From contig OZ076410.1 in NCBI GenBank assembly GCA_964187785.1, positions 50,778,001 to 50,842,000 of the forward strand: 64,000 nucleotides of DNA, in the 5' to 3' direction. Under the pieces are notes generated by a model. That model saw only the letters and a program-made list of their open reading frames with translations. It had not been told where the DNA came from and ran no database searches. A program made the position numbers and the translations under genes. Position 1 is the stretch's first letter; each line of letters starts with the position of its first letter. This stretch comes from Amphiscolops sp. MND2022. Lineage: Eukaryota. Below, piece by piece: positions 35,298-57,083 of the stretch.

Positions 35298-36484
35298 CAG
35301 GGGTTTGCAATAATTAATTGGTCTTCCAATAATTGCAATAATAATTGCCAATATTATTGATTGGGCACTTTTCCAATAACCAATTAATTGGAAATCGTTT
35401 TGCCAACTATTGGTTTCATTGGTTTTCAAATTGAAAGCTCTTTTTCAGGTTTGAAATGAGTTCGAACAGAGATTTTAAAACCATATGCAAGAAGTATTTC
35501 ACACCAATGGAAAATGACATTTTCAAATGCAAATGTGGCAAAATTTTGAAGCAAAAAAAAGGTACCGGTTGGTCTAATTTGATGGTGCATATTCGAACAC
35601 AACACGAAACAACTCCATCCGGTCCCCAAAATACTTTGGACTTTATGCAATGTAAGAAGTCTCAAACCATCCATGATTGGATCGAATGGATATGCATGGA
35701 GCTTCGACCTTTTAGCTTTGTGGAAAGCGAGTATGTGAAGAAAAATGTCAAGCTTGAAGCAATATGGATATGGATACTTGATATGGATATGGACTCTGCT
35801 CGGACCTTGTTCGACGAGTTATTGAAAACTGTCGAGAATTTTGATCGGAACAAGAAATATATCCATAAGAATTGTGCCATTGCCAAAAACAATTCGTTTG
35901 AAAACGCTATTGTTAAGCTACAGTCTGGTGATGAATGTGCTCTCAACGTAAATGAAAATCTAGCGTGCAAAAAATTGAGAAGAACTTCTGATATCGAGTG
36001 CGAATTTCCACAGACGGATGACTTCGCGGGAAACGTTTTGGCGAAAAAGAAGAAAGATACCAAACAGATGAAATACATTCCCTGCTCGTTCATTTTGCCG
36101 ACATCTAATCATTTGGAACGGTTTTTTAGCGCAGCTGGTTTCGCTTCGAATGACTACCGAAAATCAACTTTGCCGATGAATTTAGAAGAGCAACTGTTCC
36201 TTCGATTTAACAAAAAGCACTGGGATTTGAATTTAGTAAATCAAATTGTGAGTGCCTCTGAGTGAGATATTCATTTGAGTGTGCATGCCGCTGAGTGAGC
36301 TGTTTTATAATGCGTCTTTTCGATGATTTTTGTAATTTAATCACTCTGAAACAGCTGTTTTTTAAAGTGCCCAATTATTGCACTTATTGCAATAATTTAT
36401 TGGTCAAGGGTCCAATAATCAATTAATTGGTTTTCAGAAGTTTTGGGACCAATAATTATTGCAATTATTTATTGCAAAGCCCTG
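35298..36484 (+). mobile_element. Internally deleted hAT DNA transposon, 8-bp TSD CTCCGTTC
   Basis: TIR CAGGG(G/C)TTTGCAATAA(T/A)TAATTG; perfect CTCCGTTC on both sides; AATTATTG-type subterminal repeats. Confidence 0.95.
35456..36265 (+). CDS. 269-aa truncated hAT transposase: BED finger joined in frame to the C-terminal dimerisation region
   Basis: FKCKCGK...GWSNLMVHIRTQH (BED) and LPTSNHLERFFSAAG...LEEQLFL (hATC); far too short to hold the whole catalytic core. Confidence 0.85.
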   Translation: MSSNRDFKTICKKYFTPMENDIFKCKCGKILKQKKGTGWSNLMVHIRTQHETTPSGPQNTLDFMQCKKSQTIHDWIEWICMELRPFSFVESEYVKKNVKLEAIWIWILDMDMDSARTLFDELLKTVENFDRNKKYIHKNCAIAKNNSFENAIVKLQSGDECALNVNENLACKKLRRTSDIECEFPQTDDFAGNVLAKKKKDTKQMKYIPCSFILPTSNHLERFFSAAGFASNDYRKSTLPMNLEEQLFLRFNKKHWDLNLVNQIVSASE

Positions 36485-36716
36485 CTCCGTTCTCTGTCAA
36501 ATTTCCCTTGTCTCTGAACTTTGTCAATTTCGACTGCAACTCTTCAACTCATCTATTTCGTTCATTACTTCTTTCAATTTTTCGTTCACTAGGATAGCAT
36601 TTTCTTCTTCACTTTTAGTCAGGTCTTCAGGTAGACCCCGTACGCGAAATCTTGATAAAATATTGTAAAACAACGGCGTTGTTAGCGATAAGTCGAATGA
36701 TTGGTGAGATTAAAAA

Positions 36717-36797
36717 AGCCATTTGGTCTAAGGGTTAAGGCGCTTGACTGCTAGCTAGATCTGTCTTGAGATGCAGGTTCGAGTCCTGTAATGGCTA
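36717..36797 (+). ncRNA. tRNA-like Pol III gene in the TRIM 5' LTR (type II cloverleaf, GCT at the anticodon position)
   Basis: Acceptor AGCCATT/AATGGCT, D-stem GTCT/AGGC, variable arm ATCT/AGAT, T-arm GCAGG-TTCGAGT-CCTGT, A- and B-boxes, TTTT immediately downstream; anticodon stem poorly paired. Confidence 0.8.
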
Positions 36798-36833
36798 TTT
36801 TCTCACAATCATGTCGAGCTTGGGTTGTTATAC

Positions 36834-36847
36834 TGGTAGCCATTACA
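36834..36847 (+). promoter_or_regulatory. Primer-binding site TGGTAGCCATTACA
   Basis: One nt after the 5' LTR; reverse complement is TGTAATGGCTACCA, the LTR tRNA 3' end plus CCA. Confidence 0.85.
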
Positions 36848-36970
36848 TAAGTGGCTTGAATCTCCAGGTGTGTTGTGTTCAACTGGGAGCTGTGTGGCAT
36901 CAGCTTCAGTTAGAAGGGAATAATATAACGGCGTTGTTAGTGATAAGCGAATGATTGGTGAGATTAAATA

Positions 36971-37051
36971 AGCCATTTGGTCTAAGGATTAAGGCGCTTG
37001 ACTGCTAGCTAGATCTGTCTTGAGATGCAGGTTCGAGTCCTGTAATGGCTA
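36971..37051 (+). ncRNA. tRNA-like Pol III gene in the TRIM 3' LTR
   Basis: Same cloverleaf as 36717-36797, with one D-loop substitution. Confidence 0.8.
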
Positions 37052-38229
37052 TTTTCTCACAATCATGTCGAGCTTGGGTTGTTATAATTATAATGTTTCT
37101 CCGACTTTTCCTTCAAGTCAATTTTTTTCCGGAATGGCATTGATTTTGGGTTCAATCTTTTACCAATCACAGTATTAACAACTTTAGTTTTTGATTCAGT
37201 TTGTTACGACATTGCTTGGTGTCCAATACTTCAGTTTTTCTGTTACTTGCGACACGGTCGTCACAGAACAAGGCGAAACGACCACCTAGTTCTTTGATGC
37301 CATTTATTGCAACGTTTGATAGACCTGTGCAGGTAGTGTTCAAATGCATTTTGTTCCATGCACAACATGCAACTGTTATTGAATATTTTGTATGTATACT
37401 TGAACATCGCCAATAACATTAGATCTCAACACACTGCTTAGCAACTAACTACAGAGAATAGTCAGATCTGGTGTCAACGGAGCAGGTGAAGAGAGAGATT
37501 GCTGGCCAGTAGAAGCTGCTCGGCCAAATAGAGCCATTTGGTAACATCTGAAAAAGTAACTGCACTTTAAAAATAAATTTCACGAATCATATATTTGTCG
37601 AATCCAGAGCTTTTAAAAACATTTCTCGATTTATAATTTTTTACTCTCAGATTACTTAGATTGTAATCATTTCTTTCGAAAGAAATATAAGGAGACCAAC
37701 ACGCGTACATGGAGACTCCTACGCAGATGTGGAAACTGCAACATCTTTGAAAAACTGCAACTAAACTAAAACTGTCTATCAAAAGGAGAAACAACCTCTA
37801 TTCTACTACTACTAATATTTATCTGCTTCGATGTTGGTCGTCATGTTAGTGGAGACAATGCTACACTCACTGGTGATCAGCAAACGAGAAGAAACAGTCA
37901 ACGAAAATCAAAAGTATCTCATTACTCATGCTAGCCACTAGCCTAGTAGAACGGGACAACTCAATACTTCTCGATATTCAGACTGCAAAAGAGTTCATTC
38001 GATTTCACATATACTGTTTTCTTCAACGAATGTATAGTCGAAACTCCTCATCCATGCAGCAACGTAAACCCATTCCACCAAAAACCTGACAAGTGCTGTG
38101 TACCAAATGAACGACTTGTGAGCATGATATACTCTACTTTTCAAAAAAGAGGAGTCTAAGCCAAGCAAAAACACTCCAGATGAAATAGATCGTCGTCGAC
38201 AATGTGATGTCAAGTTAGTTATAATGTTG

Positions 38230-38384: not shown

Positions 38385-39091
38385 CGCGTAGTATGATATG
38401 TGGGGCATATCCGGTGTATGCACGCTCGTCCTCACCGTCGCAAAGACCAGCTCCCACTACGATCGCTTCTCGATCTCCGTTCCCGCTAGGTCTTTGCTCC
38501 TGTTCGACCTCGCTTAGCAAGATGGGAATATAAGCGGCCCCAAGGGGCGGCGGGGCACTAGAGGAAATGGGGACATATCCGAGGCACGTTTTATGCTTTC
38601 CACCATTCCTACATTATAGGTCTCATCGTTTTTCTTCCAGAATTCTAAAAACTGGTATTCTACAAACGGGTGGGCGGAAATAGGTCGAAGGAACGGGATC
38701 GAAAATCAGAGTTAGTCCTCAGGTCGACAATACCAAATTTTTGAATGGGATCGAAACAACTCGGATCGAAATTTTTATAACGTAGTCAGATATGTTTACA
38801 TACCCCTAGTGCCCTGAATGCAGGAGCGAAGCGAAGCGGAGCGACGTGCCATATGGCCATCCCTCAACCGAACAGGTTCTTTGTAATTCGATCAAAAGGT
38901 TCGACCTCAGTCCTTTCGACCAGAAAAATTCGACCTATTTACAGCCACCCTTCTACAAACTAGACCTAACCAGTTTGTAGAAAACTAAAAACAAAACCAA
39001 CATAATACGGGACGTTTCGGCATGAAAAATTTGCCGAAACTTCTCGAAATTTTTCTTTGCCGAAACGTCTTTGCCGAAACGTCCTGTTCCC
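38385..39091 (-). mobile_element. Composite MITE of the GCCGAAACGTC family, inverted homolog of 55202-55749
   Basis: Right end CCTGTTCCC; internal 38385-38640 closely matches 55380-55640 in reverse; left end truncated. Confidence 0.8.
38668..38950. mobile_element. GGTCGAA-repeat MITE, 10-bp TSD TTCTACAAAC
   Basis: TIR GGGTGG...AAATAGGTCGAA; the empty site is visible in the homolog at ~55345-55385. Confidence 0.85.
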
Positions 39092-40007
39092 GTTCAACAC
39101 ATGTTGGATCACATCCACATGGCCTTGGAACATATCTAGGATCGCTCTTATCAAAAAGCCGGGAAAGAAATCCTACGAACAATGCTCCAGCTATAGACCA
39201 TTATCTATTTCTAGCCATGTTGGAAAGTTATTTGAGAGAATGATTTCTGCTAGACTGAAGCTTTACTTCGAAACTCACAATATCCTTGATGAAAAACAAG
39301 AAGGTTTCAGGACTCATCGGAGAACTACCCGTTCTTTGTATCGTATGCATCTCATATCAGAGGAAGCAAAGCGCTCGAAAAAGCCGACTGCACCAATGAA
39401 TATTGATCTGGAAAAGGCATTTGATAGGGTTGAACGGAAATGGGTCAAAAGAAATGGGTCGAATCGGCCTCCTGTGCCATGGGTCGAATCTTCACCGTTT
39501 CGGAATTGGGTCGAATGGACTTGGGTCGACCTTGAAAAATGCCAAGTTCAAGGGAGACAACATATTGATTTCGACCCAAGTCCATTCGACCCAATTCGAC
39601 CTCAGTCAATTCGACTTAAGTTATTCGACCAAAAGGGTCGACCTAATTCTTTTCGACCTATTTCATTCGACCCATTTCATGCAATCCTTTGATAGCATTT
39701 GTGTCGAAGGTCTGCTTTATAAACTTGAATCGGTGAATTTGCCCCACAGGCTGCTATGTATCATATCATCCTTTCTTAGCAATCGGAAGGGATTCATTGA
39801 TATCAACGGCCATTACACTGAACTTTTCGATTTTAATGTTGGTCTCCCCCAAGGCCGTGTGATTTCCCCTCTTCTTTTTATTTTTTACCTGTGTGACTTC
39901 TTATCCGAAGTCGAGGTAAAGTTCAAATTTGCAGATGACAGCTCGGCTATCATCTCTGCTTTTAACACAGATACCTTACATTCAGCTCTACAAGCTATTT
40001 GTCATAA
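39092..40007 (+). mobile_element. LINE reverse transcriptase, N-terminal part (Jockey/I-like)
   Basis: SYRPLSISSHVGKLFERMI, QEGFR, IDLEKAFD, GLPQGRVISPLLF, KFADD; interrupted by a MITE and then by the gypsy LTR. Confidence 0.92.
39427..39687. mobile_element. GGTCGAA-repeat MITE, 7-bp TSD TTTGATA
   Basis: Inserted in the KAFD|S codons of the LINE RT; TTTGATA on both sides; removal restores the frame. Confidence 0.9.
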
Positions 40008-40626
40008 TGTAGCGTTCCGAGATGAACGTTTTGTTGAATTTGAAGGATTTTCGGGACGAGTTGAGTTGACTGGAACGCTTTTTGAAGGATACTTTTTATA
40101 TTGAATGTTAAATTAGAAGATATGTGAGGTTGAAATTGATAGACAGAGAAAATTGTATTTAGCGCGAAAGATGGTTGAAGGAAAGGTGGAAGATTCGACG
40201 CAGAAAGGCTCAAAAGCAAAATGTCTAACTTCCCAAACTTCCTTAAATACCCCTTATCAGACAATATTTTGGTGACTCCCACCATTATCGGAGTTATTTT
40301 ATTACATTATACCCAGACCTGTCGAAACCCGTTGGCCTGTGGTTACGTTATCAACATTTACTGTCGAACCCCGACAGTACAATGTGACTAAGTTATCGAG
40401 CCCGTCAACTTCAATTTACGATGTGTCACGTAAATATTATTTTATTGCCAGCCATATTTTAGGCTATAAAATCTTTCCATTTTTTTCATTTAATTCTTTC
40501 TTTAGATTTTCAAAAATATCATATAGGTTTCCTATATTTCTCCCTTTCCTATGAGAAGTTAGCACATTCAAGTAGCACCATGAAAACTAATTGTTGTTTT
40601 TAAAAGTTAACAATTCATCAGCTGCC

Positions 40627-41330
40627 TCACCCATTTAGATCGTACTCAGCTCTGGCGTCAGGGTCTGTTAGTATTCTATGGGCCCGCTGCAGACGAACGA
40701 AGTTATCACTAGTACCGCCCTGCTCTGGGTGGCTCAAGACACTCAATTTTCTGAAAATTCTTGTAATTGTTTCCACTGACGCATTATTGGGGACCAAAAG
40801 CAATTGATACAGGTTAGATGATTCCAGTTGTTTAAAATTTTCCTGGAGCTGTGTAAGGTTCATTCGAAGTTCATCACATTGTCTTCGACCTTCGTCTAAT
40901 TCGCCAATAACATTTTCATAGTCTTTTTGCCACACTTGTAATGTTCTTTTTAACTTCTTGAGTTCGTGTTTTTGCTCCTGGTTTTCCTCTTGTAACTCCT
41001 GTGCTGCTTGTTGCCACAGGTACTTTTGTTGCCCCAACTTCTGGGCAGTCTGCTTCTCACGGGCCAGCTCATCTTTGAAAGCTTGCAGTTAGTACTTGTG
41101 ACTTTCGAGTTCTATGGCCACCTCTGCGACTGACGCCTTAAAGCTGGCTGCTTCCGTTTGTGTCCTCTCGGCTCTGCCGGTAATTGATGAAGGGATTAAA
41201 GTACCCGCTTCTGCTACCTTTCGGATCTTGCTAACAGACCCCTTCACCCTGTAGACCCAGTCTTTACCACAGTTTTGATGACAAAAATTTCAGGGAGGTA
41301 GTAAACGCGATCATCCACATTGAAAGCCAT
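40627..41330 (-). pseudogene. Gypsy cargo gene 2: N-terminal motif + coiled coil + J-domain (HPE)
   Basis: NLYQLLLVPNNASVETITRIFRKLSVLSHPEQGG...FVRLQRAHRILTDPDARAEYD; upstream VYYLPE...YRVKGSVSKIRK; one premature stop and one frameshift. Confidence 0.8.
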
Positions 41331-41384
41331 CTAAAGGAGACAAAAAGACAACTGAAATGAACCAACAAGAAAAATGAAGCGGCA

Positions 41385-41428
41385 TATATACATACATATA
41401 TATATATACACACATACATATATACGGA
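41385..41428. repeat. (TA/CA)n microsatellite
   Basis: CATATATACATACATATATATATATACACACATACATATATAC. Confidence 0.9.
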
Positions 41429-41649
41429 TATAATTTTGCGTGAGAATACCCATCTCTTTCGAGAACGAAGCTCGTTCGCATAGTTCATTGCAGTTAGATC
41501 CAGTTTTATCAGAGCGAAGCCCGGTCTGAATTTTTCCTGAGGAGATGTAACCCATCTCTACTCAATCGAGCGCCACCCGTTCGCTAGTATTTCATTTGTT
41601 AACGAACGAACCCCGTTCCTTCTTTTTTCTAGTCACGCCACCTTGATTG

Positions 41650-42330
41650 GCTTGACAACACTTCCTCAGCACGCTCAAGTCCAAACAAATTATACAATTC
41701 TCTGGCCATTTTATTTGAAACACGGATTAAGCTCTGTGGATAGATTTAAACTGTTCTTCGCAGCCATTCACATCGGAATGAGTTAGAGACGCTAACTTCT
41801 TGTAATTACGTTTGATTGTCTCTTCATCTGCATCTTCCTTGACGAAAAGAACCTCGTACAAGGTGAAAGGACGTTGAATCAAGGATTTTGCTTTATTTCT
41901 TTGATGCGTTTTTTGTGACCTTAGCCTTCGTCCGTTCACTTCTAACAAGAGTTCTTTGCTTTTCCGAATCTTCGCTGTGTCGCCTTATCTTGACTTTGTG
42001 TGTATGTACATCCATCTCAAGCTGGTGGATATACCTTCGTGCATCTTCAACCTCCTGATGCACGTTTCTTCCTTCACAATAAAGGCGCTCTTTCAGACTG
42101 TTCACTTCTGCCTTGGTGAGCTCCAACTCTTGTCGAATCCTGACAAGTTGGGTGGTGGAAATGTCCGCTTTCATCTTGATGATGGATGGACTGAGGGTGT
42201 CTTCCGTTGCAATTTTTCGCATCCCCGAGACACATCCTTGAATTCGATACAAGACCGGTCTCACTTTCGATTTGATTTGATGAAGTTCGGGCAAATAGTA
42301 TACATATTCGTTTATACGGTTGTTTTCCAT
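41650..42330 (-). pseudogene. Gypsy cargo gene 1: N-terminal motif + coiled coil + J-domain (HSD)
   Basis: VYYLPELHQIK...LYRIQGCVSGMRK, coiled coil, then TLYEVLFVKEDADEETIKRNYKKLASLTHSDVNGCEEQFKSIHRA; frameshifted. Confidence 0.8.
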
Positions 42331-43067
42331 TTCTAAAAAAATTTAAGGATTTTTAATGGTTTCGTGATTACTGTTCGTCATTTAGTGTAACGGGCAATGT
42401 TGTTTCTGATGAGTTTTGGGCATGATTTAGGAGCATTGAGGATCTGGGTTGTTGATTTTTGAACTCCCTTACATCTATTAAAAATTTATTGTATTCATAA
42501 AACGGATTAGGCGGTTGCCAAGCAAATCGCCTTTTTCGTACCCAACCACTTTAATCGAATTATGAAAAATATTTTGAATCCTAGTCGAACCAGCGTTCCG
42601 AATAACGTGATTGTCAGCATAGTTACTGCTATCTCTCTTCCTATCCACCAAAAAAACAGCGTTTCCTTCTTTACCGATTGAAACCACGGTGGTACTCTCC
42701 AGCTGAACCCAATCTGGTGCTCTGGAAAATTGGATGAAACACTGTTTCATGCGAGTACGTGCCTTGTGAACCCAGATACACCTCTCTACCGGTTACTACC
42801 GGTACGGCTATGGCAGATGGAGTGCGCGCGATTGCTTCTAACAAGATCTTCCATTGTGAACAATCCATTACCCCTCAAACCCACAAATTCATGTGGCCTT
42901 AGTTCCCGTGAAGAGCTGTTCCGAAAAACAACAGGTTCGACTCGCGCTAGTTCGGTTGTTTTTCCATACGTCACCCAGGATCCGTTTAGCAATTGATACA
43001 AATTGGGGTACACTAGGTTGCATTCGGTCAGTGTGTAGTTCTTGTAAAAAAATCTTTGAAAATGGAT

Positions 43068-43958
43068 TCATGAATTAAATTCCAATCGCCAAGTCTCACA
43101 GGGATTTCTTCTGTGAAGAAGTCTAAAGTTGCCAGTGTAATTTCCATTTTTGCATATCTGTGTAAGTATACAACCTCGCCCGCACACCTCGCCCGCACGT
43201 TGAATATGTGTTCTCACCATCTCGTCCCCAATTATTGCACTGTCGAGATTTGAAATTAACAATAGTTTGAGCTTGGCCTCCACATCTTGAATTCGACATC
43301 TCTGGAAGTTGACTTCCTGCCAAACTCGTTCCATTTCCTGTAACCCTTGGGCATGTAAGAAATCAACTTGGCTCTGTAGGAGCATTTCTTTGTCAATGTT
43401 GTTCATAACTTTAACTGGTAAATCTGTATCTTCGAATGAAAAGAAAATTACCTTCATGATGGTTGTGTGAACTGTAAGATTACACAAAGAAACGGGCTGG
43501 TTATGAATTTCCAGTGCGAACTTTCTGCCTTGTCTGTTGCGAACGAATCCCGTTACCATGCTGTTTTCATCAACTAATTTGATCACATTGTTTCTTCCAT
43601 TTATTCTGAAGAGTTTATAAAGGTCGCATTCTTTTGGCTTGGTCAACAAGTAAATGAGAAAATCTTTTACGAAATCAGTTTCGATGTCGTCGCTTGTTAT
43701 AGGGTTTCCGAGAGGGTCGTTCCACTTAAGGAAGTTGCTTCCGCCAAGTTGCTTCTGAGTGAACACTTTTCCAATTGTCAGTTGTCCATTGATGAAGACA
43801 GACGCTTCAATTACCTCTCCTGTTGGTGTTGTCCAGTCAATTGGTGTTGAAAACCCAATTCCTTTTCCTTTAGCTTTCATAAATTTTGCTGAGTAGTCGA
43901 AGTTCTTAAACAACTCATGCTGAGAATTATTAACTTCTTCTATGACAGTCTTTTTCAA
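43068..43958 (-). CDS. 296-aa ORF of unknown function inside the gypsy element
   Basis: Open frame in the element's sense orientation, between integrase and the J-domain genes; no motif recognised. Confidence 0.55.
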   Translation of the reverse strand: MKKTVIEEVNNSQHELFKNFDYSAKFMKAKGKGIGFSTPIDWTTPTGEVIEASVFINGQLTIGKVFTQKQLGGSNFLKWNDPLGNPITSDDIETDFVKDFLIYLLTKPKECDLYKLFRINGRNNVIKLVDENSMVTGFVRNRQGRKFALEIHNQPVSLCNLTVHTTIMKVIFFSFEDTDLPVKVMNNIDKEMLLQSQVDFLHAQGLQEMERVWQEVNFQRCRIQDVEAKLKLLLISNLDSAIIGDEMVRTHIQRAGEVCGRGCILTQICKNGNYTGNFRLLHRRNPCETWRLEFNS

Positions 43959-44655
43959 TTGGAACCGATTTTTGCTGAATCCCGTTAATATGAAAAGTTT
44001 TGCTGCCCGCGCATGACGACGAACTTCAATCGAAATTAAGTAAAATGTTGGTATAATCTATGATTTTTCATGTAGATACAGTCCATCATCATAAACAGAT
44101 GATTTTTTCATGTACGACACCGTATACGTAGCTTGATAATGACATGTTTTCTTTTCCCGTCTACCGTCGATGTCACTGAACACCACTGAAGCACGTGGCA
44201 CTGATGCCATCTCACTCGAACCTCGAGTACAATTTTTTGATCAGTTAAGGAGCACACCGTGGTCCCTACAACTTGCTCGAAGTCGTATCCTACAGTTTTA
44301 ATGTTTTCTTCTTGCACCGATACGTAAATAATAATCAAAAGTAGTATTATCTTGTTACCCGTGTCTCTGTTTTCTCTTGGGATTTGCATTCTTTTTCCGT
44401 GTTCTCGGCTGCTCCTAATTTCCTGAAGCAAAAACGTCGTTCTCATCGAAAGAAGTGTCGTCACAGTACACAAAATAGTCACCGAATCTTTTCGGAACTG
44501 ATCGGATACCAGTACTTTTCTCCCTTTGTGGCACTATTGGAGGCCTCCTCTCGTTTTTGGTTTCGTAATTTTTGTTTGAGGCGTTTTTAAAGGAACCGAT
44601 TCATTGTTAACTCCCTCTGCACATCTTTTCATTCTCGCTCCGCCATCAGATTCCT

Positions 44656-47600
44656 TTAACTCGCTTGTGCTCGCAGTAGGCCCTTGTTCGCATTCGGTAT
44701 TTTTTCCGTCTCATCTGGACTGGCTACTCGTTCCCTCTTTCCTAATTTACCTATCGGTTCAATCTCAACCTCTATTAAGTCGTCATCGATGATCCCAGAT
44801 TCGTCTGTTTGTAGAGTTTCAGTTTGTTCCTGAATTCCGCTCATTCTTGTGAAGATTCGCTCCCGCGGTTTGTACTTTTTCATTCAATCGTAATGTACTT
44901 TGATTTCTTCTCTGGTCTCTTCGTGGCACACACGGAAATTCAGATTGTTGATTTTTTCGAGAATTTTGTATGGTCCTCTGTAGAACGAGGTGAACTTCTT
45001 TGTTTGTCGCTTCTTTACTGTAGGGAACAATATAAGCACTTGTTCACCCACGTGGTAGACAGGGTCATATGCCCGGTAATCATAATACGTTTTCTGTTGT
45101 GTTTGTTCTAATTCCATGTGCGATCTCACAAGATTTTAGCAGTTTTCTCTTTGTGTTGTAAATAAAATCACACGGAGTCGGGAATAATTCGGTATGACGT
45201 GTCTCGTACATACAATCAATCGGTAATCTCAATGGTTTACTCATTACAAGATAGTTTGGACTATGTTTAGTGACTGCATGAATTGACGAGCGATATGCCA
45301 TCATGACCAGTTGCAAATAACAGGTCCAATCGCTCTGGTGATCATCGATGTATTTCGATAAGCTTTCTTCAATTGTCCGGTTTGTTCTTTCAATCATCGC
45401 ATTGCCTTCTGGATGAAAATGAGTGGTGGATGTCCGTTCAATGCCCAAAACCCGACACAACTCTGTAAAGAGTTCCGACATAAAATTTGTTCCTTTATCA
45501 CTATGTAAATTCACGGGACATCCAAATTTCGTGATCCAGTTATCGGTTTATGCTTGTGCGACTGTTTTTGCTTCCTGATTTGCCATAGCAACGGCTTCGT
45601 ACCATTTACTAAATTGATCACCAATCAACAAAATGTACTTTTGGCCATTGGATTCTGGCAAGGGACCCATCACATCTAATGATACCTGCCAAAAAGGATG
45701 GCTCGGTTTCCACATTTTTAGACTGTGTCTGTGTTTCTGAGGGATGCCTTTTCTTCTCAAGCATTTATCACAGCTTTGAACCCAGCTGTTCACGTCTCGT
45801 TTCATACCAGGCGAAAAGAACCGTTCTTGAGCTCTCTGATATGTCTTTTCGATTACGAAATGGCCTGTGCACGGAGACTCGTGCAGCAATGGTAGTATGT
45901 TGGAAATTTAATTCTCCGCAACAATAAGCTGATGTACCCAACGATCTCCGTCTTCTAATTTTTTTCTACCGAAGAGAAGCCCTTGTATCAACCGGAGGTT
46001 CTTGAAGTCCACCCAAAATTCCCATAGTTCTTTAGAAGCTCCGTTCATGTTTTTTCGATCAGGTCTCTGCTTTTCTTCAATCCATTTTAGGACTTTCTTT
46101 ATGTTGTTATCTTCATGCTGTTTCATTTGCATACTATTACGATCTGTATTCTGGAGTAACATCCATGGGTTCGCAAGAAGTTCCTCCATCGTCGTGTTTT
46201 CTGTCAGTGCTGCCACATAGACAGTTATTGGATTTTCCTCCTCCGGCAGTAGTCGCGATAAACAAGCTGCATGAGGGATGCTTCTACCCGCTTTATGTTT
46301 AATTTCGAAGTCAAATTGTCCAAGTTTTTCCAACCAACGTGCAACTATCCCTTCTGGATCTTTGAAACTGTAGAGCCATACCAAGGCTCTGTGATCGGTA
46401 ACTATTGAAATTTTTCTACCTTACAGATAGGTTTTGAAATGATTTGTAAAATGGACAACGTCAAAGAGTTCCTTTTTAGTTGCTGAATAGTTTTTTTGGC
46501 TTTTGTTCAGAGTTTTGCTGGCGTAAGAAACAACTCGATCAATTCCTTCTTGTTGCTGTGTTAGGACTGCCCTATTTCCCGTTAGTGAAGCATCCGTAGT
46601 TAGAGTGTACTCATCTCGATTGTTTGGATACCCCAAATTAGGTGCCGACAACAATTTTTCTTTCAGCTCTTGCAAGGCCTGTTCGCATTCTTTCGTCCAC
46701 ACGAATTTGTTTTCTTTCTTCAGAAGATTGTACAGAGGTTCTGAAGTCTTTCCGGTACCCGGAACATATTTTCTATAGAAACCCACCAACCCAAGGACTG
46801 CTCTAACTTCTTTCAGACAAGTTGGTGATTTCATTTTCTCAACTACCTTCACTTTTTCTTCATCCACCTCAACCCCATTTTCAGAGTTGACATGTCCTAA
46901 GAAATGTATTCTCTTCTGGAGGAATTTACACTTTGATCCTTTGATTTTCAGTTCACTTTTCTGAAGTCTGCAAAATACCAGTTCTAGTTTTCCATATGTT
47001 CTTCGAAGTTTCTACCAAAAACGATTATGTCATCTAGATATATATCCACACGTTGTAGGATAGACCGCTGAACACCAGTTCCATGAGGTTCTGAAAAGCC
47101 CCTGGAGCTGATGCTAGGCTCATTGGTAGTCGTTTCCATTTGTATAGACCCATAGGCGTAATAAAAGCAGTGAGGTTTTGACTATCGTCTTTTAATGCCA
47201 TTTGGAAATAGCCGGATGTCGAATCAATGCTCGAAAAGAACATAGTTCCTTCTAAAGAATCTATTACATCGCTTATTCGAGGTAACGGCTAACACGTTTT
47301 TTCGATCTCTTTGTTTTAACCCCGGTAGTCAACAACCAATCGGAACAGTAGATCGGCTTCGGCTAATCCCTCAAAGATTTTTTTCATTGCTTTCCTTTTA
47401 TCAAAACTCATGTTTCCGTAGGTTCTCCTAAAAGGTTGAGCGTCAGGTTTCAGTTTGATTTGGTGCTCAATCTGATTGTTGAAACCCAAATCATTTGAGT
47501 GTCTCGAGAAAACTGTCTCGTACTTATTGCATAATGTTCTTACTTGGTGCAGCTGGTCCTTTGACACAGTTTTATTTTCTATATTAACATGTCTCTCGAA

Positions 47601-48409
47601 GCTGAAATCCTCGCGCTTTGTTTTCTCTTCTGTTTGTCGTTGTAATTTCAAAGCAAGTTCATGCAACTCCAATGTTTCTAGTGTACCTACCCTAGTATTC
47701 CGATAAGTAACAATAACTTCATTGTGTATGTTCAATAGTGTTACCCAACACGTTCCGTTGTCATTGTTCACTAAGGCCTGAGCAACCCATAATCCTGTCG
47801 CTTCTTGGAAGGTTTCGAGGGGGTTTACTAAACCTTCTAACTTGGTAGCTTTCGAACCATCCTCGTATCTCAACTCACACTGCACTTGTGTCTCATTTCG
47901 TGCAGGAATTGCTTGGTTCGACTTGGCTACCAAAAACGTTGACCCCTCTTTACTCACATTTGACTTTAGTTCCATGCTTCGGTTTGTTTTTCCATAGAAT
48001 AGTTTCTGTTGTTTCGCGTACAGTACACAGTCGTTTTGTCCAGTAGACACAAAATCTAATCCCAGTAGACACGGGAAAAATCCAATGCCGAGATTGAAAA
48101 TGTGGTCCGAAACTCGGGTGTAAACTTTTCCAGCGGAACGATCAGTTCAACTTTACCCTTTATCAGTAGAGGCAAGTTATTTGCCGTGAGTATCTTCCCG
48201 TTATACTCTTCCGTTTTACCACTGAACGTTAATGTTTGCAAATATGACCAGCTGATCAGTGAGATGCTACTACTACTGTCAACTAGAGCAGTTGTAAGTT
48301 TTCCTTGCAGCAAAAAAGTTGTGTATAAAGCGTGTGTATTAGTTTGACTCCGTTCAGTCATTCCCATAATGGCCAAAGTCGATCGAGGCAAATGTGTTGC
48401 CATTTCCAC
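44656..48409 (-). pseudogene. Gypsy pol (PR-RT-RNase H-IN), frameshifted
   Basis: PR 48056-48409, RT ~46870-47330, RNase H ~46000-46870, IN with HHCC (LHESPCTGH...CDKC) and core at 44884-45900. Confidence 0.93.
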
Positions 48410-49178
48410 ATCGGCCTGTTTTAGTTTAAAAAAGGACAGTCTTTTTTGAAATGCTGTGAGCTTCCGCAGTTATAGCAATTCCTACACTCTCTCGCCCAGT
48501 GACCACGTTGACCGCATCTATGACAACTATCCCCTGCGATTCCCGCTCGATCCGATTCTGAAATCTCTCTCGAGACTGGGATCTGCTTTGTCCTCTTTCC
48601 GACCTACCGGGCGTTTGTTGTCTGCCTTTATATCCTCCGCGTCCTCTTCTTCGTCCCCCTCGACTTCGATCTCCCCCGTTTCCGTTTCTATCACTATCTC
48701 TTGAACTACTTCTTCGGTATTGTTTCCTTTCCGGAAAACTCTTGCGGTTGTCATTTCGCGAATTTGGCGAGAGAGAGTTTTTTCTATCAACTGAATCACA
48801 GAATTAATCAATCTCTCATTAATGTCGAATTGAAGCACAGCGACTCTGGGTTCTTTTTCTTCCTCCTCAATCCTAGTGACAACTTCAAGGTGCAGAGCCA
48901 TTTCTAGTATGCGGTGAATCCCACCATTATCGGAGTTATTTTTTTTACATTATACACAGACCAGTCGAAACCCGTTGGCCTGTGGTTACGTTATCAACGT
49001 TTACTGTCGAACCCCGACAGTACAATGTGACTAAGTTGTCGAGCCCGTCAACTTCAATTTACGATGTGTCACATAAATATTGTTTTATTGCCAGCCATAT
49101 TTTAGGCTATAAAATCTCTCCATTTTCATTTAATTCTTTCATTTTGATTTTCAAAAATATCATATAGGTTTCCTATAA

Positions 49179-50285
49179 TAATATAAAGTTTTGGTGCAAA
49201 AAGTGGAGAATGGTAGTTAATGGGTCTAAAACTGAGCTACTTCTTTTCAATTGCTTGACTGACAACACTGAGCCAATCCTTCTCAACGGGGAGCGATGCA
49301 AGACGAAGCAAACTACTAAATCTCTGGGCTCAACTATAGACACTAACCTCACCTATAGAGAGCATACGTCTATTACGGGCTCGAAAGCTTTAACTAGCTG
49401 GAGGCTGCCTAAAAGTAAATGCTCTAACAGGTGGGGCCTCAGTATACCAACACGAGCCTATCTGTATAAAACCATATTCAGACCACAGTTATTATATTCG
49501 GAGCCGGAGAAACTATGCGTGCCTACAGATTGAACAAAATCGACTCATTCGCTCCAAAGTGAAACACAGCTTGTGTCCAAAGACAACAGCCAGCTTTTGA
49601 AGTTTTGATGAGGATTCCTCCTATAGATATTTATTGTTCTTCAATTGAAAGAAAATTTTTAATCAAAGCTGTGAATAAAAATGCTTTAGTTACCGCGACG
49701 CATGTCAAAACATTGACAAGACCCAGTAGTCTCTCCTCCCTTCTCCTAAGCAAACTGGAAAGATTTGAAAGAACTCATATGTCTTATTCTTACACTCGCG
49801 ACTCCATCAATGCCTTCATCAGTGATAACTGGAACCGCAGATAGAACAGTCCGTATAAGGACAATTTCCTCAGGAATTTCATTTCCAACTTGTCACAAGA
49901 AACGATTCATTCACCTTTACTGGACGGAAACACTTTGATTGCCAATATGATAAGCGACCTTCTCATCGGGAGCTCACGAAGATTAGCTGAAAACTTATGG
50001 AAATTGAGCCGCACACCATCGCCCATGTGTATTTGTGGAATGTCAGAGCAGAACAGCTACCACTATTTCTTTTCATCTCTGATGACTGTGCCATTATTAG
50101 AAATTTCATCTCTGGTACAAATATTATTTAATGTACTGAAACTGGGGAAGCGATCCTGCCTAATTTGTATGCATCCACTATATTGTAACTGTTCTTAAAT
50201 TGTTCTGTTTCATACCTGCCCGCAAAGAGGGTCTTCATTTTAGAATTTATACATATACCGCGAGAATAAAGCCAGGATCAATCAA
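49179..50285 (+). mobile_element. LINE RT C-terminal part and 3' end, duplicate copy
   Basis: KFWCKKWRMVVNGSKTELL...KSLG...YKTIFRPQLLY, SPMCICG...SYHYFF; ends AATAAAGCCAGGATCAATCAA. Confidence 0.85.
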
Positions 50286-51483
50286 CGGGACGAGTATCGA
50301 TCGCGCGAGTTGACCGTAAAGATGTAGTTGTTGAAGATTCGTATCTTTCCCTACACATTAGCATGCTAAACTGAAGATTCATTCGCACATCCATTGCGCA
50401 TTCGGAATTTCTATGTCCATTTGTCTATACCTCATTTCATGAGTTTTTTTGGTTTGTTTCAGATGATTTTACTGAGGATGGCAACATCCTTGCCGAAAAC
50501 GTCTTAATTTACCATTGGAGTTTATCTCATTTTTATTCAATGAAAATAACAGAATGAAAGTAATTTTACACAACTCTAGAATTCTCAAACCTCAAAAACA
50601 AAAACTATCTACACTTGACCGTGAATTACTTGGTATTGGACTAGTATTACTAGTATTCCGATAAGTAACAATATCTTCATTGTGTATGTTCAATAGTGTT
50701 ACCCAACGCGTTCCGTTGTCATTGTTCACTAAGGCATGAGCAACCCATAATCCTGTCGCTTCTTGGAAGGTTTCGAGGGGGTTTACTAAACCTTCTAACT
50801 TGGTAGCTTTCGAACCATCCTCGTATCTCAACTCACACTGCACTTGTGTCTCATTTCGTGCAGGAATTGCTTGGTTCGACTTGGCTACCTAAATGTTGAC
50901 CCCTCTTTACTCACATTTGACTTTAGTTCCATGCTTCGGTTTGTTTTTCCACAGAATAGTTTCTGTTGTTTCGCGTACAGTACACAATCGTTTTGTCCAG
51001 TAGACACAAAATCTAATCACAGTAGACACGGGAAAAATCCAAAGCCGAGATTAAAAATGTGGCCCGAAACTCGGGTGTAAACTTTTCCAGCGGAACGATC
51101 AGTTCAACTTTACCCTTTATCAGTAGAGGCAAGTTATTTGCCGTGAGTATCTTCCCGTTATACTCTTCCGTTTTACCACTGAACGTTAATGTTTGCAAAT
51201 ATGACCAGCTGATCAGTGAGATGCTACTACTACTGTCAACTAGAGCAGTTGTAAGTTTTCCTTGCAGCAAAAAAGTTGTGTATAAAGCGTGTGTATTAGT
51301 TTGACTCCGTTTAGTCATTCCCATAATGGCCAAAGTCGATCGAGGCAAATGTTTTGCCATTTCCACATCGGCCTGTTTTAGTTTAAAAAAGGACAGTCTT
51401 TTTTGAAATGCTGTGAGCTTCCGCAGTTATAGCAATTCCTACACTCTCTCGCCCAGTGACCACGTTGACCGCATCTATGACAA

Positions 51484-52386
51484 CTATCCCCTGCGATTCC
51501 CGCTCGATCCGATTCTGAAATCTCTCTCGAGACTGGGATCTGCTTTGTCCTCTTTCCGACCTACCGGGCGTTTGTTGTCTGCCTTTATATCCTCCGCGTC
51601 CTCTGCTTCGTCCCCCTCGACTTCGATCTCCCCCGTTTCCGTTTCTATCACTATCTCTTGAACTACTTCTTCGGTATTATTTCCTTTCCGGAAAACTCTT
51701 GCGGTTGTCATTTCGCGAATTTGGCGAGAGAGAGTTTTTTCTATCAACTGAATCACAGAATTAATCAATCTCTCATTAATGTCGAATTGAAGCACAGCGA
51801 CTCTGGGTTCTTTTTCTTCCTCCTCAATCCTAGTGACAACTTCAAGGTGCAGAGCCATTTCTAGTATGCGCTCTATGTTCATTTCAGCGTCTCCAATTGT
51901 CTTTCTGAGATCTAGTCTCACTTGACTATTACGGATTCCCTCAAGAAATCACCTAACTACCAAGTGATCTCTTATCTCTTTTGATTCACACGGGTAGGCC
52001 TTCATCGCTAAACCCTGTAAGTTGCCTAGAAAATCGGTTAAGTTCTCGCCAGGGCTTTGCGTCCTCCTCGCAAGCCGTCCCCGGAATACCACTGGTTTCT
52101 CAGTGCAATGAGTTCCGAAAGCTTTCTTCAACTCGTCATAACTCGCTTTTTGAGCGTCAGTTAAAGTTCGATAGAAATCAATCGCGGATTTTTGGAGACG
52201 GAATGCAAAATAATGCGGCAGATCATCAGTTTGTACGTCTTTTCCTTCACGAGTTTCTGTTCTAACCCAGTTCTGGAGGTTAGCTAACAGTTCGAAATGA
52301 GTTATATAACTGTCGATGTCATTGGAGCCAGTGAACGGTTCCGGTAATAACATCTTGGAAGTACCCGTAGCCATCGTAGCTATCAA
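51484..52386 (-). pseudogene. Gypsy gag
   Basis: MATGTSKMLLPEPFTG...FRLQKSAIDFYRTL...SYDELKKAF; C-part LEMALHLEVVTRIEEE. Confidence 0.85.
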
Positions 52387-53475
52387 CCCGACCTTGCTCT
52401 TCTTTCTTTTCTGTGTGCTGAATCTACTTAAGGAAACGTTACGCTAGACAACTGTTAAGATTTTCTTTTTAAGCACTAGCTCTTTGATAGTGACCCAATA
52501 GCAAAAACTTGTTGTTTTTCAAAATCAGTGAAACACCCTGATTTGTTTTAAAGACTATTTATTTCTTAGTTTCTTTTGTTTTCAATTATTGATCTTTTCT
52601 ACGCCTTGGTTGTTTCAGTTTCTTTTTCCATTAGGATGTTCCGTTTAAAATGGTTTCTACGTTGTAGCGATGTTATTTCATACCCGTCTTCAAAATAACC
52701 TCGAAATAAAATTGTTCTACCGAAAAATTATTCTCGTGCAGTGGAAGTTGGTTTTACGTTTATGTGATTTTCGAGGATTCCGATTGTAGTATCGATTCAA
52801 TTTATTTTTGAAACATTGAGTTTTACTCGTGTTTATAGTACATCTCGATTTTTTTTGAAAAAAAATGTTCAACTAACTTTTTTCTTCGTCGTTGATTGCG
52901 GGTCGGATACTATTCTAAGTCGAAAAGTCGTTTTCTTTTTTCCTTGTCACCACTGTAGCGTTCCGAGATGAACGTTTTGTTGAATTTGAAGGATTTTTGG
53001 GACGAGTTGAGTTGACTGGAATGCTTTTTGAAGAAGGTTTTATATTGATTGTTAAATTAGAAGATATGTTGAGGTTGAAATTGATAGATAAAATTGTATT
53101 TAGCGGGAAAGATGGTTGAAAGAAAGTTGGAAGATTCGACGCAGAAAGGCTCAAAAGCAAAATGTCTACTTCTCACACTTCCTTAAATACCCCTTATCAT
53201 ACAATATTTTGGTGAATCCCACCATTATCGGAGTTATTTTTTTACAATATACACAGACCAGTCGAAACCCGTTGGCCTTCTGGTTACGTTATCAACGTTT
53301 ACTGTCGAACCCCGACAGTACAATGTGACTAAGTTGTCGAGCCCGTCAACTTCAATTTACGATGTGTCACATAAATATTGTTTTATTGCCAGCCATATTT
53401 TAGGCTATAAAATCTCTCCATTTTCATTTAATTCCATCATTTTGATTTTCAAAAATATCATATAGGTTTCCTATA

Positions 53476-54583
53476 ATAATATGAAGTTTTGGTGCCAAAA
53501 GTGGAGAATGGTAGTTAATGGGTCTAAAACTGAGCTACTTCTTTTCAATTGCTTGACTGACAACACTGAGCCAATCCTTCTCAACGGGGGGCGATGCAAG
53601 ACGAAGCAAACTACTAAATCTTTGGGCTCAACTATAGACACTAACCTCACCTATAGAGAGCATACGTCTATTACGGGCTCGAAAGCTTTAACTAGATGAA
53701 GGCTGCTTAAAAGTAAATGCTCTAACAGGTGGAGCCTCAGTATACCAACACAAGCCTATCTGTATAAAACCATATTCAGACCACAGTTATCATATTCGGA
53801 GCCGGAGGAACTATGCGTGCCTACAGATTGAACAAAATCGAATCATTCGCTCCAAAGTGAAACACAGCTTGTGTCCAAAGACAACAGCCAGCTTTTGAAG
53901 TGTTGATGAGGATTCCTCCTATAGATATTTATTGTTCTTCAATTGAAAGAAAATTTTTAATCAAAGCAGTGAATAAAAATGATTTAGTTACCGCGACGCA
54001 TGTCAAAACATTGACAAGACCCAGTAGTCTCTCCTCCCTTCTCCTAAGCAAACTGAAAAGATTTGAAAGAACTCATATGTCTTATTCTTACACTCGCGAC
54101 TCCATCAATGCCTTCATCAGTGATAACTGGAACCGCAGATAGAACAATCCGTATAAGGACAATTTCCTCAGGAAATTCATTTCCAACTTGTCACAAGAAA
54201 CGATTCATTCACCTTTACTGGACGGAAACACTTTGATTGCCAATATGATAAGCGACCTTCTCATCGGGAGCTCACGAAGATTAGCTGAAAACTTATGGAA
54301 ATTGAGCCGCACTCCATCGCCCATGTGTATTTGTGGAATGTCAGAGCAGAACAGCTACCACTATTTCTTTTCATCTCTGGTGACTGTGCCATTATTAGAA
54401 ATTTCATTTCTGGTACAAATATTATTTAATGTACTGAAACTGGGGAAGCGATCCTGCCTAATATGTATGCATCCACTATATTGTAACAGTTCTTGAATTG
54501 TTCTGTTTCATACCTGCCCGCAAAGAGGGTCTTCATTTTAGAATTTATACATATACCGCGAGAATAAAGCCAGGATCAATCAA
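53476..54583 (+). mobile_element. LINE RT C-terminal part and 3' end
   Basis: Continues 39092-40007 across the gypsy insertion; near-identical to 49179-50285. Confidence 0.88.
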
Positions 54584-54779
54584 CGGGACGAGTATCGATC
54601 GCGCGAGTTGACCGTAAAGATGTAGTTGTTGATGATTCGTATCTTTCCCTACACATTAGCATGCTAAACTGAAGATTCATTCGCACATCCATTGCGCAAT
54701 CGGAATTTCTATGTCCATTTGTCTATACTTCATTTCATGAGTTTTTTTTGGTTTGTTTCAGATGATTTTACTGAGGATG

Positions 54780-56470
54780 GCAACATCCTTGCCGAAAACG
54801 TCCTAATTTACCATTGGAGTTTATCTCATTTTTATTCAATGAAAATAACAGAATGAAAGTAATTTTACACAACTCTAGAATTCTCAAACCTCAAAAACAA
54901 AAACTATCTACACTTGACCGTGAACTACTTGGTATTGTAAACGCACTTCAAACCTATGAAATTCTCATAATTGGATCTCCACATCCAATACATATTTTCA
55001 CAGATCACAAACCTCTTCTACATTGTTTCACAAAGAAAGGCACTCTCAGCCCACGATTTTATGGTGCTCAGATGCAACTACCAAAATTCTCCAAACATAA
55101 AATCATTCACACACTGGGAAGAAACCTTTCTGTTGCCGATCTGCTCAGTCAATCTTTTACAAAAACTGAACTTCAAATTAGCCAACTCAAACACAAATAA
55201 TGGGAACAGGACGTTTCGGCAAAGACGTTTCGGCAAAGACGTTTCGGCAAAGACGTTTCGGCAAAAAAACTCGAGACGTTTCGGCAAATTTTTCATGCCG
55301 AAACTTCCCGTATTATCTTGGTTTTGTTTTTGGTTTTCTACAAACTGTTTAGGTCCAGTTTGTAGAATACCAGTTTGTAGAATTCTGAAATTGATGAAAA
55401 ACGATAAGACCATTAATGTAGGAATGATGCAAAGCATAAAATGTGCCTCAGATTTGTCCCCATTTCCTCTAGTGCCCCGCCGCCCCTTGGGGCCGCTTGT
55501 ATTTCCATCTTGTTAAGCGAGGTCGAACAGGAGCAAAGACCTAGCGGGAACGGAGAACGCGAAGCGATTGTAGTGGGAGCTAGTCTTTGCGACGGTGGGG
55601 GCGAGCGGGCATACACCCGATATGCCCCACATATCATACGAAACGTTCCGGCATATGTTTTTAGGCTGAGATTTTTCGGCATTTTTTTGCCGAAACGTCC
55701 GCCACCATGTTTTTGCCGAAACGTCCGTTGCCGAAATGTCCAGAATCCCAAACAATTACGTGCACAAGTTGATTTGGCTGTTTTACAAATTAATATCCTT
55801 CAACCCGTACATCATTCAATCAAACATGAGGCACGAGGAAGTGTTACATTGTCAAAAACTTGAATCTCATCCTATCCTGATTATGGCACAGACCAATTGT
55901 CAATACGTAAGAAAGACAAAGGCAATGATGTCATTGTTAAACCTCTAGACTCTTTTTCTTTCAAATCTGTTACACCTTTTCAATCTAAATTCAAACCACC
56001 CATCAAAAAACACAACAAATCTCTCAAACAACAAAATCCTTAACTCAATGATACTGACATCATCAGTGATGATGAAGATGAAACATATACAAGAATCCCA
56101 AAAGATTCAACACTTTTTACACCTGACACTACTATTACTTCCGAAAACTTTTCTACACTCACGAACCCAAAATCTGGTACTCACTCTACAAATGCAATTG
56201 AAACACAACAACCTATCAAACATTACAACACATTGTTCACAAATCATTCTATTTTATGACCCATCAATTTTTGAAAACAAAAATTATTTTCAAGGTCTTT
56301 TTACGAGTCGACTACACTTTAGATACAATAACGCTTAAACAACAACAAGCACAAGACCCAGTACTCGAAACAGTATACTTCTGGATAACACAGAACACTA
56401 AACCAGACTCTTTAACGCAATAAACAGTTTCATATTTTGGAATGGCTCCAATAACAAAAAGTGTTAACTT
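54780..56470 (+). mobile_element. Second-family gypsy RNase H and downstream region, with a MITE insertion; duplicated at ~57300-58610
   Basis: NSRILKPQKQKLSTLDRELLGIV...FTDHKPLL...GRNLSVADLLS...LKHK. Confidence 0.85.
55202..55749. mobile_element. GCCGAAACGTC-repeat MITE, ~7-bp TSD (AAATAAT/AAACAAT); shorter copy at 57707-57899
   Basis: GGGAACAGGACGTTTCGGC...GCCGAAATGTCCAGAATCCC; same insertion site (K-H-K|Q-L) in both duplicated blocks. Confidence 0.85.
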
Positions 56471-57083
56471 AATGACTACTTCAAAATGCTGAAAGCGCAA
56501 AAAAACATTGAAAGATGATGACTCATGTATTGGCTGCCACACATGCGGTATCTGGTGGCATGGTTCCTGTGCTGGTCAATCCTCAGACGAAGTATCATGG
56601 TTGAGAAAGAAAGGCAACTGTCTCTGGCTCTGTAACCCCTGTCTGGATGATGACGTCTTCCATCACAAAACGAAGCTACGTTTACTTCATTACTTGAGTC
56701 TTTTAACACTAACCATTTCATCTACTATTAGCGATGTTTTTCCTAAGGTAGTACAATGTTCGTTGCCTAAAACCTTAACAGATGATGTAAAAAAGCTGTT
56801 AATGACTCCATTCCCTTCCGAAAAATCGTAAAGAAGCATTCTAAGCAACCTTTAGTCGATTTTACACCCGATCTGCAATTTGTAATTACTGGTGTACCCG
56901 AGGAAAACATTACTTTTTTACAGCAAATTGAACACGATTCCAATAAAGTAGAACAAATATTAAAACATAAGGGATTGCATCCTGATGGGAATGTCACTTC
57001 TATCAAACATCTTGGAAGGAGCATGAATCCTGAGAATAAGGAGAAACGTTTACGCCGTACAATATTGGTGACAACCTCCAACC
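56470..57083 (+). mobile_element. CR1/L2-like ORF1 fragment with PHD finger; duplicate at ~58610-59202
   Basis: CIGCHTCGIWWHGSCAG...LWLCNPC, followed by FVITGVPEE...IKHLGR. Confidence 0.75.

Follow-up and report, generated by a model that had tools for sequence, protein, structure and literature searches.

Two J-domain genes downstream of a class III-type envelope gene in a decayed Ty3/gypsy element

A Ty3/gypsy LTR element in the window (the whole 64,000-nucleotide stretch of DNA that was analysed) has the layout gag-pol-env-J1-J2-PPT-LTR, with two J-domain genes between its envelope gene and its polypurine tract. J1 and J2 are very probably a selected part of this element family. On balance, opinion leans slightly towards a broader picture, that of an old enveloped Ty3/gypsy lineage of marine animals which acquired the layout of a complex retrovirus independently, and whose spliced post-env genes would be a new family of Hsp70 co-chaperones, hijacking particle assembly or sabotaging Piwi/Argonaute loading.

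Architecture of the element

The element reads on the minus strand, and its features, listed in element order, are as follows.

53475 to 40008, minus strand: LTR element, Ty3/gypsy, recognised by its LTR pair and pol order
52954..53475, minus strand: 5' LTR (element sense), 92.5% identical to the 3' LTR
51400..52374, minus strand: gag-position ORF, broken, named by position only and without a Pfam match
47692..50638, no strand assigned: duplicated block, ~98% copies of 50650-54937 with a 1.3-kb deletion
44880..48469, minus strand: pol, broken, with protease, RT and RNase H plus an integrase (H2C2, core, C-terminal), by Pfam
42507..44389, minus strand: env, a chuvirus/gB-type (class III) fusion glycoprotein gene of ~627 codons, broken, named through its relative P0069 with PF24664
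41629..42330, minus strand: J1, with beta-domain, coiled coil and J-domain, motif HSD, from Pfam DnaJ and relatives
41380..41426, no strand assigned: TA/CA microsatellite in the J1-J2 gap
40587..41330, minus strand: J2, with beta-domain, coiled coil and J-domain, motif HPE, from Pfam DnaJ and relatives
40539..40550, minus strand: polypurine tract (PPT) GGAAAGGGAGAA, a purine run ahead of the 3' LTR
40008..40536, minus strand: 3' LTR, paired with 52954..53475

The LTR pair is flanked on both sides by ATAA, a 4-base target-site repeat, and a PBS-like TGG lies one base past the CA of the 5' LTR; both LTR copies start with TA, not TG. A LINE reverse-transcriptase frame is split by the element and picks up again past the 5' LTR. 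The LINE RT frame is also broken by a TCGAC/GTCGA-rich insertion at 39420-39690, and a dispersed repeat whose GCCGAAACGT units occur in either orientation (38391-39094, 55199-55367 and 57704-57877) is present in the LINE flank as well.

Pfam matches along pol follow the Ty3/gypsy order, namely Asp_protease_2 (weak, under the cut-off), RVT_1, RT_RNaseH_2, RT_RNaseH, Integrase_H2C2 and rve, and the integrase end additionally matches Integrase_p58_C and SH3_Tf2-1. Peptidase_A17 and DUF1759 were not found in the J-bearing element with Pfam, and both are present in Bel/Pao fragments elsewhere in the window. These fragments belong to two decayed Bel/Pao elements, at 8439-11408 (plus strand) and 20322-23780 (minus strand), with DUF1759, Peptidase_A17 and Integrase_H2C2. 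The Pfam scan of the gag-position ORF gave no capsid match. The duplication consists of two pairs of blocks, 98% identical (47692-48913/50650-51870 and 48913-50638/53211-54937), and takes in some of gag/protease and of the 5' LTR, together with LINE sequence from the flank. This tandem duplication at 47692-50638 may post-date the insertion, either as a real rearrangement or as a feature of the assembly; the element measures ~13.5 kb with it and ~10.5 kb without it.

Other features of the window include a BED zinc-finger transposase-like fragment, probably hAT, at 35435-36265 (plus strand), and a tandem 167-base repeat with two tRNA-like genes at 36666-37086, possibly a SINE or a pseudogene pair. 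The region 56000-64000 has a strong negative GC skew (to -0.39) and direct repeats of 2.1 kb and 1.5 kb.

The envelope gene and the J genes

A chuvirus/gB-type env is present in the element, upstream of J1 and J2. The env frame breaks in about six places (near 44240, 44060, 43190, 43060, 42810 and 42740), and it has a hydrophobic N-terminal stretch and, by hydropathy, a C-terminal transmembrane-like stretch at ~42632-42560. The gene was recognised through P0069 (582 aa), the single env relative among 2115 longer candidates, which is 80% identical and maps onto 44389-42651. P0069 matches PF24664 (Monjiviricetes_fusion) with an E value of 4.1e-21 and 75 bits against a cut-off of 27, and its cluster mate P0155 also matches PF24664 above the cut-off. 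The largest open env piece of the window gave no match in Pfam or PDB sequence searches and a weak Atlas lead (0.86) to viral fusion glycoproteins, and a single-sequence structure model of env had a pLDDT of 27.9. Since the element has an envelope gene, it probably had an extracellular stage.

A preliminary description of this DNA had put the J genes in the env position. This is wrong, as the 1.9-kb broken env at 44389-42507 separates them from the integrase; the same description's placement between integrase and PPT holds in so far as the genes lie inside the LTR pair and before the PPT, and fails in leaving out the env. Its other main observation stands, as 40560-42330 does take in both J genes, and these are diverged paralogues that have in common the N-terminal motif, the coiled coil and, at the C-terminal end, the J-domain. 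They lie on the minus strand and are 30% identical. The DnaJ profile match which that description asked for was obtained, as PF00226 matches the J1 piece with E 1.1e-9 and 38.7 bits and the J2 piece with E 5.1e-13 and 49.4 bits, both above the cut-off of 27.8. The J1 frame breaks near 41920, 41885 and 41725, and J2 breaks near 41270, 41091 (a stop) and 40625. The density of breaks is similar in env, J1 and J2, with about six, three and three of them, indicating that the whole copy is decayed. Spacing along the 3' region is 177 bases from env to J1, 298 from J1 to J2 and 36 from J2 to the PPT, and no terminal or target-site repeats bounding the J cassette were found in the window sequence.

Relatives of J1 and J2 and their linkage

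A search with the J1 N-terminal piece gave 18 relatives among 26 candidates, with open forms of 229-243 aa carrying HPD, and the J2 search gave four among 73 candidates, with open 248-aa forms carrying HPD in clusters of 20 and 5. Pfam DnaJ was found in all six open relatives tested. Of the 57 distinct J records from outside the window, many of them near-copies, 53 keep HPD and the other four read HAD, LPD, HSD and QPD. The J family has the HPD motif together with a basic helix II, and the window copy, in which HSD and HPE were read again as first noted, lacks HPD; the earlier suggestion that these two motifs arose by decay after insertion gains support from the 53 relatives.

An N-domain profile recovered 68 proteins among 50%-cluster representatives. 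Of 63 such relatives scanned, six had a DnaJ match (one under the cut-off), and most of the others are cut short or carry frameshifts, as copies in decay would. P0129 was dropped as an N-domain relative, being a repeat-driven false match. P0085, P0153, P0095, P0103, P0111 and P0124 make up another subfamily of the N-domain, whose coiled coil differs; as one of its members keeps a decayed J-domain, there may be families with a third paralogue or a J-less form. The subfamily of P0107 and P0134-P0146 has 14 nearly invariant, open members with HPD, on contigs of up to 9.3 kb from many assemblies, and its called start falls inside the N-domain.

The preliminary description had looked to other copies for the same genes, and relatives do carry them, with J1 and J2 paired by contigs of equal size. 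For 12 of 19 J2 records on long contigs, the contig has exactly the same size in bases as that of a J1 record, an equality that indicates a shared contig only and from which neither adjacency nor LTR context follows. This count excludes five records on contigs of 613-1,932 bases as too short and draws on 15 of the 20 main-cluster members among the records listed; for the other 7 of the 19, the records listed include no J1 partner. P0013 (of J1 type, 68% identical to the near subfamily) and P0127 (of J2 type, 37%) make up a distant pair that is similarly found on 10,100-base contigs, and env P0069 and J1 P0028 are both on contigs of 4,063 bases. Identity between the window copy and the open lineage on short contigs is 80.5% for env, 83.2% for J1 and 79.1% for J2, an equal divergence such as joint inheritance would give. 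The distant subfamilies P0076, P0102 and P0145, represented by protein records, may belong to gypsy elements as well.

In a tree of 13 proteins, midpoint-rooted and subject to a long-branch warning, J1-like and J2-like rows are parted by a 100/100 branch, and P0013 and P0127 fall on opposite sides, which argues that the J1/J2 duplication predates those subfamilies. The J-domain is likely to derive from capture of a host class A/B DNAJ gene, with its duplication preceding the division into subfamilies.

Locus searches of viral contigs, metagenome contigs and prokaryote genomes gave no relative. Contigs from sequencing runs X1 and X2 (apparently one data set) and X3 hold pieces of the LTR, env and pol, and those of X3 include a 204-base J1 piece. 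In X1/X2 the part 40812-42331 is without cover and no contig spans it, hence this gap in cover is no sign of J-less copies.

Pattern of change in the J proteins

Between sister copies, private amino-acid changes are spread evenly over domains and coil (binomial p 0.74, 0.84 and 0.37), the pattern that decay following insertion would give. From one subfamily to another, variation is lower in the N- and J-domains than in the coil (Fisher p 6e-5, 6e-7 and 3e-5, in a protein-level stand-in for dN/dS that uses related, non-independent copies and an unsure coil alignment). Mean pairwise identity is 53% in the N-domain, 50% in the J-domain and 25% in the coil (45 pairs from 10 proteins). At the protein level, the pattern between subfamilies thus appears not to be neutral, in agreement with the non-neutral evolution anticipated at the outset. 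Judged by sequence comparison, the N-domain constitutes an unclassified conserved family and is the most conserved part of the J proteins.

Predicted proteins and their expression

An AlphaFold2 model of an open J2 relative (mean pLDDT 81.7) predicts four beta strands and a short helix (residues 8-45, pLDDT 60-75), a helix of 113 residues (58-170) and a J-domain. Its best Foldseek match was the J-domain of Sis1 (E 7.5e-5, rmsd 1.5), and a VIA match was obtained to the J-domain of ERdj5 (Z 10.1, rmsd 1.9, 69 residues aligned). By sequence, the J-domain is closest to DNAJA1, DNJ-12 and DnaJ2 among the best 60 of 62 solved matches, where score differences are small. Matches from the viral fold library are confined to the J-domain and include giant-virus and phage DnaJ proteins. 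The J-domain is C-terminal, after beta-domain and coiled coil, and the class A/B DnaJ layout, an N-terminal J-domain with a G/F region and domains for client binding after it, was not found; with the modelled fold and the profile matches, J1 and J2 are best classed as predicted class C J-domain proteins.

The N-domain had no match in Atlas, PDB or Pfam searches, which returned blanks or coiled-coil noise. Its strand pattern may resemble SH3/Tudor-like barrels; no sequence match to known barrels was found, and the matches of the whole-model structure searches fell on the helix and J-domain. An origin of the N-domain from the integrase C-terminal SH3 was considered and is not supported (probability 0.1%). 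Transmembrane and signal-like stretches are absent from ten of ten J proteins, so the J proteins would act in the cytosol or nucleus, away from the env ectodomain, which lies in the ER lumen.

Each J gene begins next to an acceptor-like tract.

42333..42355, minus strand: splice-acceptor-like tract, two bases before the J1 start codon, rank 2 of 23 YAG-ATG sites
41331..41375, minus strand: splice-acceptor-like tract adjoining the J2 start codon, rank 1 of 23 YAG-ATG sites

Among 161 pyrimidine-tract/YAG sites of the element strand, which has 936 AG altogether, the J2 tract ranks first; a second acceptor-like tract lies 21 bases upstream of it, and a weaker acceptor-like site lies ahead of env, at 44423. 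In 27 relatives with upstream extensions, Phe accounts for 15.6% of the residues immediately before the conserved start, compared with 6.9% further up and 1.7% inside, and several J subfamilies have no Met at the conserved start; both observations fit a conserved splice acceptor. A pattern search between the 5' LTR and gag gave no strong splice donor and one weak site. The sequencing-run search gave three DNA data sets with a small share of matching sequence and no RNA data set among the matches listed. A marine metagenome with matching DNA and the Bel/Pao fragments of the window suggest a marine animal as host. From these signals in the DNA, J1 and J2 are likely to be expressed from cis- or trans-spliced RNAs.

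Possible roles of the J proteins

The reading put forward for the J proteins, tentatively and with confidence a little short of even, is that they are spliced, soluble Hsp70 recruiters which serve the assembly or uncoating of the element's own Gag/Pol particle. J1 and J2 would be made from spliced subgenomic RNAs as soluble cytosolic proteins, and the 113-residue helix may provide for their oligomerisation or coiled-coil linking. The conserved N-terminal beta-domain would bind the client, presumably the Gag/Pol particle, and the J-domain would stimulate host cytosolic Hsp70 for the assembly or uncoating of that particle.

The main rival to the particle as client is an attack on silencing, in which the J proteins would divert Hsp70 from DNAJA-dependent Argonaute/Piwi loading, or carry Hsp70 to silenced chromatin via the beta-domain. 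This is considered rather unlikely, and has several points in its favour. DNAJA1 and C. elegans DNJ-12 are among the closest solved J-domains (best 60 of 62), the fast-diverging paralogues (30% identical) and the further subfamilies would fit an arms race, and the strand pattern of the N-domain may be like that of SH3/Tudor barrels. DNJ-12 is reported to connect an Argonaute with HSP70 for small-RNA loading (PMC11194074), and SILENZIO, a plant J protein, to work with HSP70s in transposon silencing (PMC8616336). Nevertheless, the N-domain is without a match to any Pfam family or solved chain, and that the most conserved part of the proteins is this domain suits a constant partner better than a fast-moving host defence.

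There are two further explanations. In one, which is improbable, the J proteins would behave in the manner of T antigen and, without particle contact, reshape a host complex of the cell cycle, of stress or of trafficking in aid of germline infection; the J-domain of polyomavirus T antigens offers a precedent, as far as the accessible part of that report goes (bioRxiv 2022.02.15.480533), and env implies a probable extracellular stage, but no polyomavirus T antigen was among the best 60 of 62 solved-structure matches, that in the viral fold library was a weak fragment match at rank 49, and no known host-binding motif was found in the J proteins. Least probable, and clearly disfavoured, is a passenger pair, riding in the 3' region as a separate mobile unit nested there or as a host gene once captured, and doing no service to the element. 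The distant relatives are known as protein records, which would leave room for it. The cassette, however, lacks terminal or target-site repeats and is tightly spaced, divergence is equal for env, J1 and J2, both paralogues are kept in the distant pair P0013/P0127, and domain-biased conservation and HPD persist across subfamilies that are 30-40% identical, all of which weighs against a passenger.

Comparison with known systems

Complex retroviruses carry spliced accessory genes 3' of env, such as HIV nef and foamy virus tas/bet. The window element resembles them in that additional genes, with an acceptor-like site before each, separate env from the 3' LTR, and differs in belonging to another family, with a Ty3/gypsy pol and a class III env; HIV nef and foamy virus tas/bet are not known to encode J-domain proteins.

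There is a close likeness to the HSV/gB-type (chuvirus-glycoprotein-like) errantiviruses of Chary and Hayashi (PMC13524379), animal Ty3/gypsy elements that bear an env, with which, on the available text of that survey, the element shares gag-pol-env order (gag being named by position), Ty3/gypsy pol order, LTRs and a PF24664 class III-type env, and from which it differs by two more genes after env. That survey, in its available parts, annotates gag, pol and env only; its text holds no mention of DnaJ, J-domain, Hsp40, chaperone, accessory or splice, and its seven supplements hold none of four of these terms. With the same pol order, LTRs and env family, the J-bearing element would work like a gB-type errantivirus. 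LTR retrotransposons of bdelloid rotifers have also captured non-envelope ORFs 3' of pol, described in the accessible text of Rodriguez et al. (PMC5408684) as GDSL esterase, DEDDy exonuclease, coiled-coil and TM ORFs; there the extra ORF takes the place of env, in contrast to two after env here, and no DnaJ is reported in that text. A search of the literature, with Repbase and most subscription papers outside it, found no J-domain cargo in LTR elements.

J-domains are known from viruses, occurring in 11 RNA virus families and polyomavirus T antigens (bioRxiv 2022.02.15.480533, in the part available) and in the Rki-type J protein of a phage (PMC3486835, likewise in part). These cases are alike in the presence, on a mobile genome, of an HPD J-domain whose recruitment of Hsp70 is presumed or has been shown. 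In viruses, such domains are parts of replication proteins or polyproteins, or of large DNA viruses, whereas here they occur in stand-alone paired genes, with an unclassified N-domain and a coiled coil, in an LTR retroelement.

Errantiviruses have been described as three-gene elements, and two conserved post-env genes, if true, would amount to a complex-retrovirus layout outside Retroviridae. LTR elements rely on host chaperones, and small-RNA silencing requires Hsp70 with DNAJA co-chaperones. As both depend on chaperones, J proteins borne by the element itself make the chaperone question directly testable for retroelements, setting chaperone access for particles against an attack on the chaperone step of silencing, and the partner of the unclassified N-domain would name the client.
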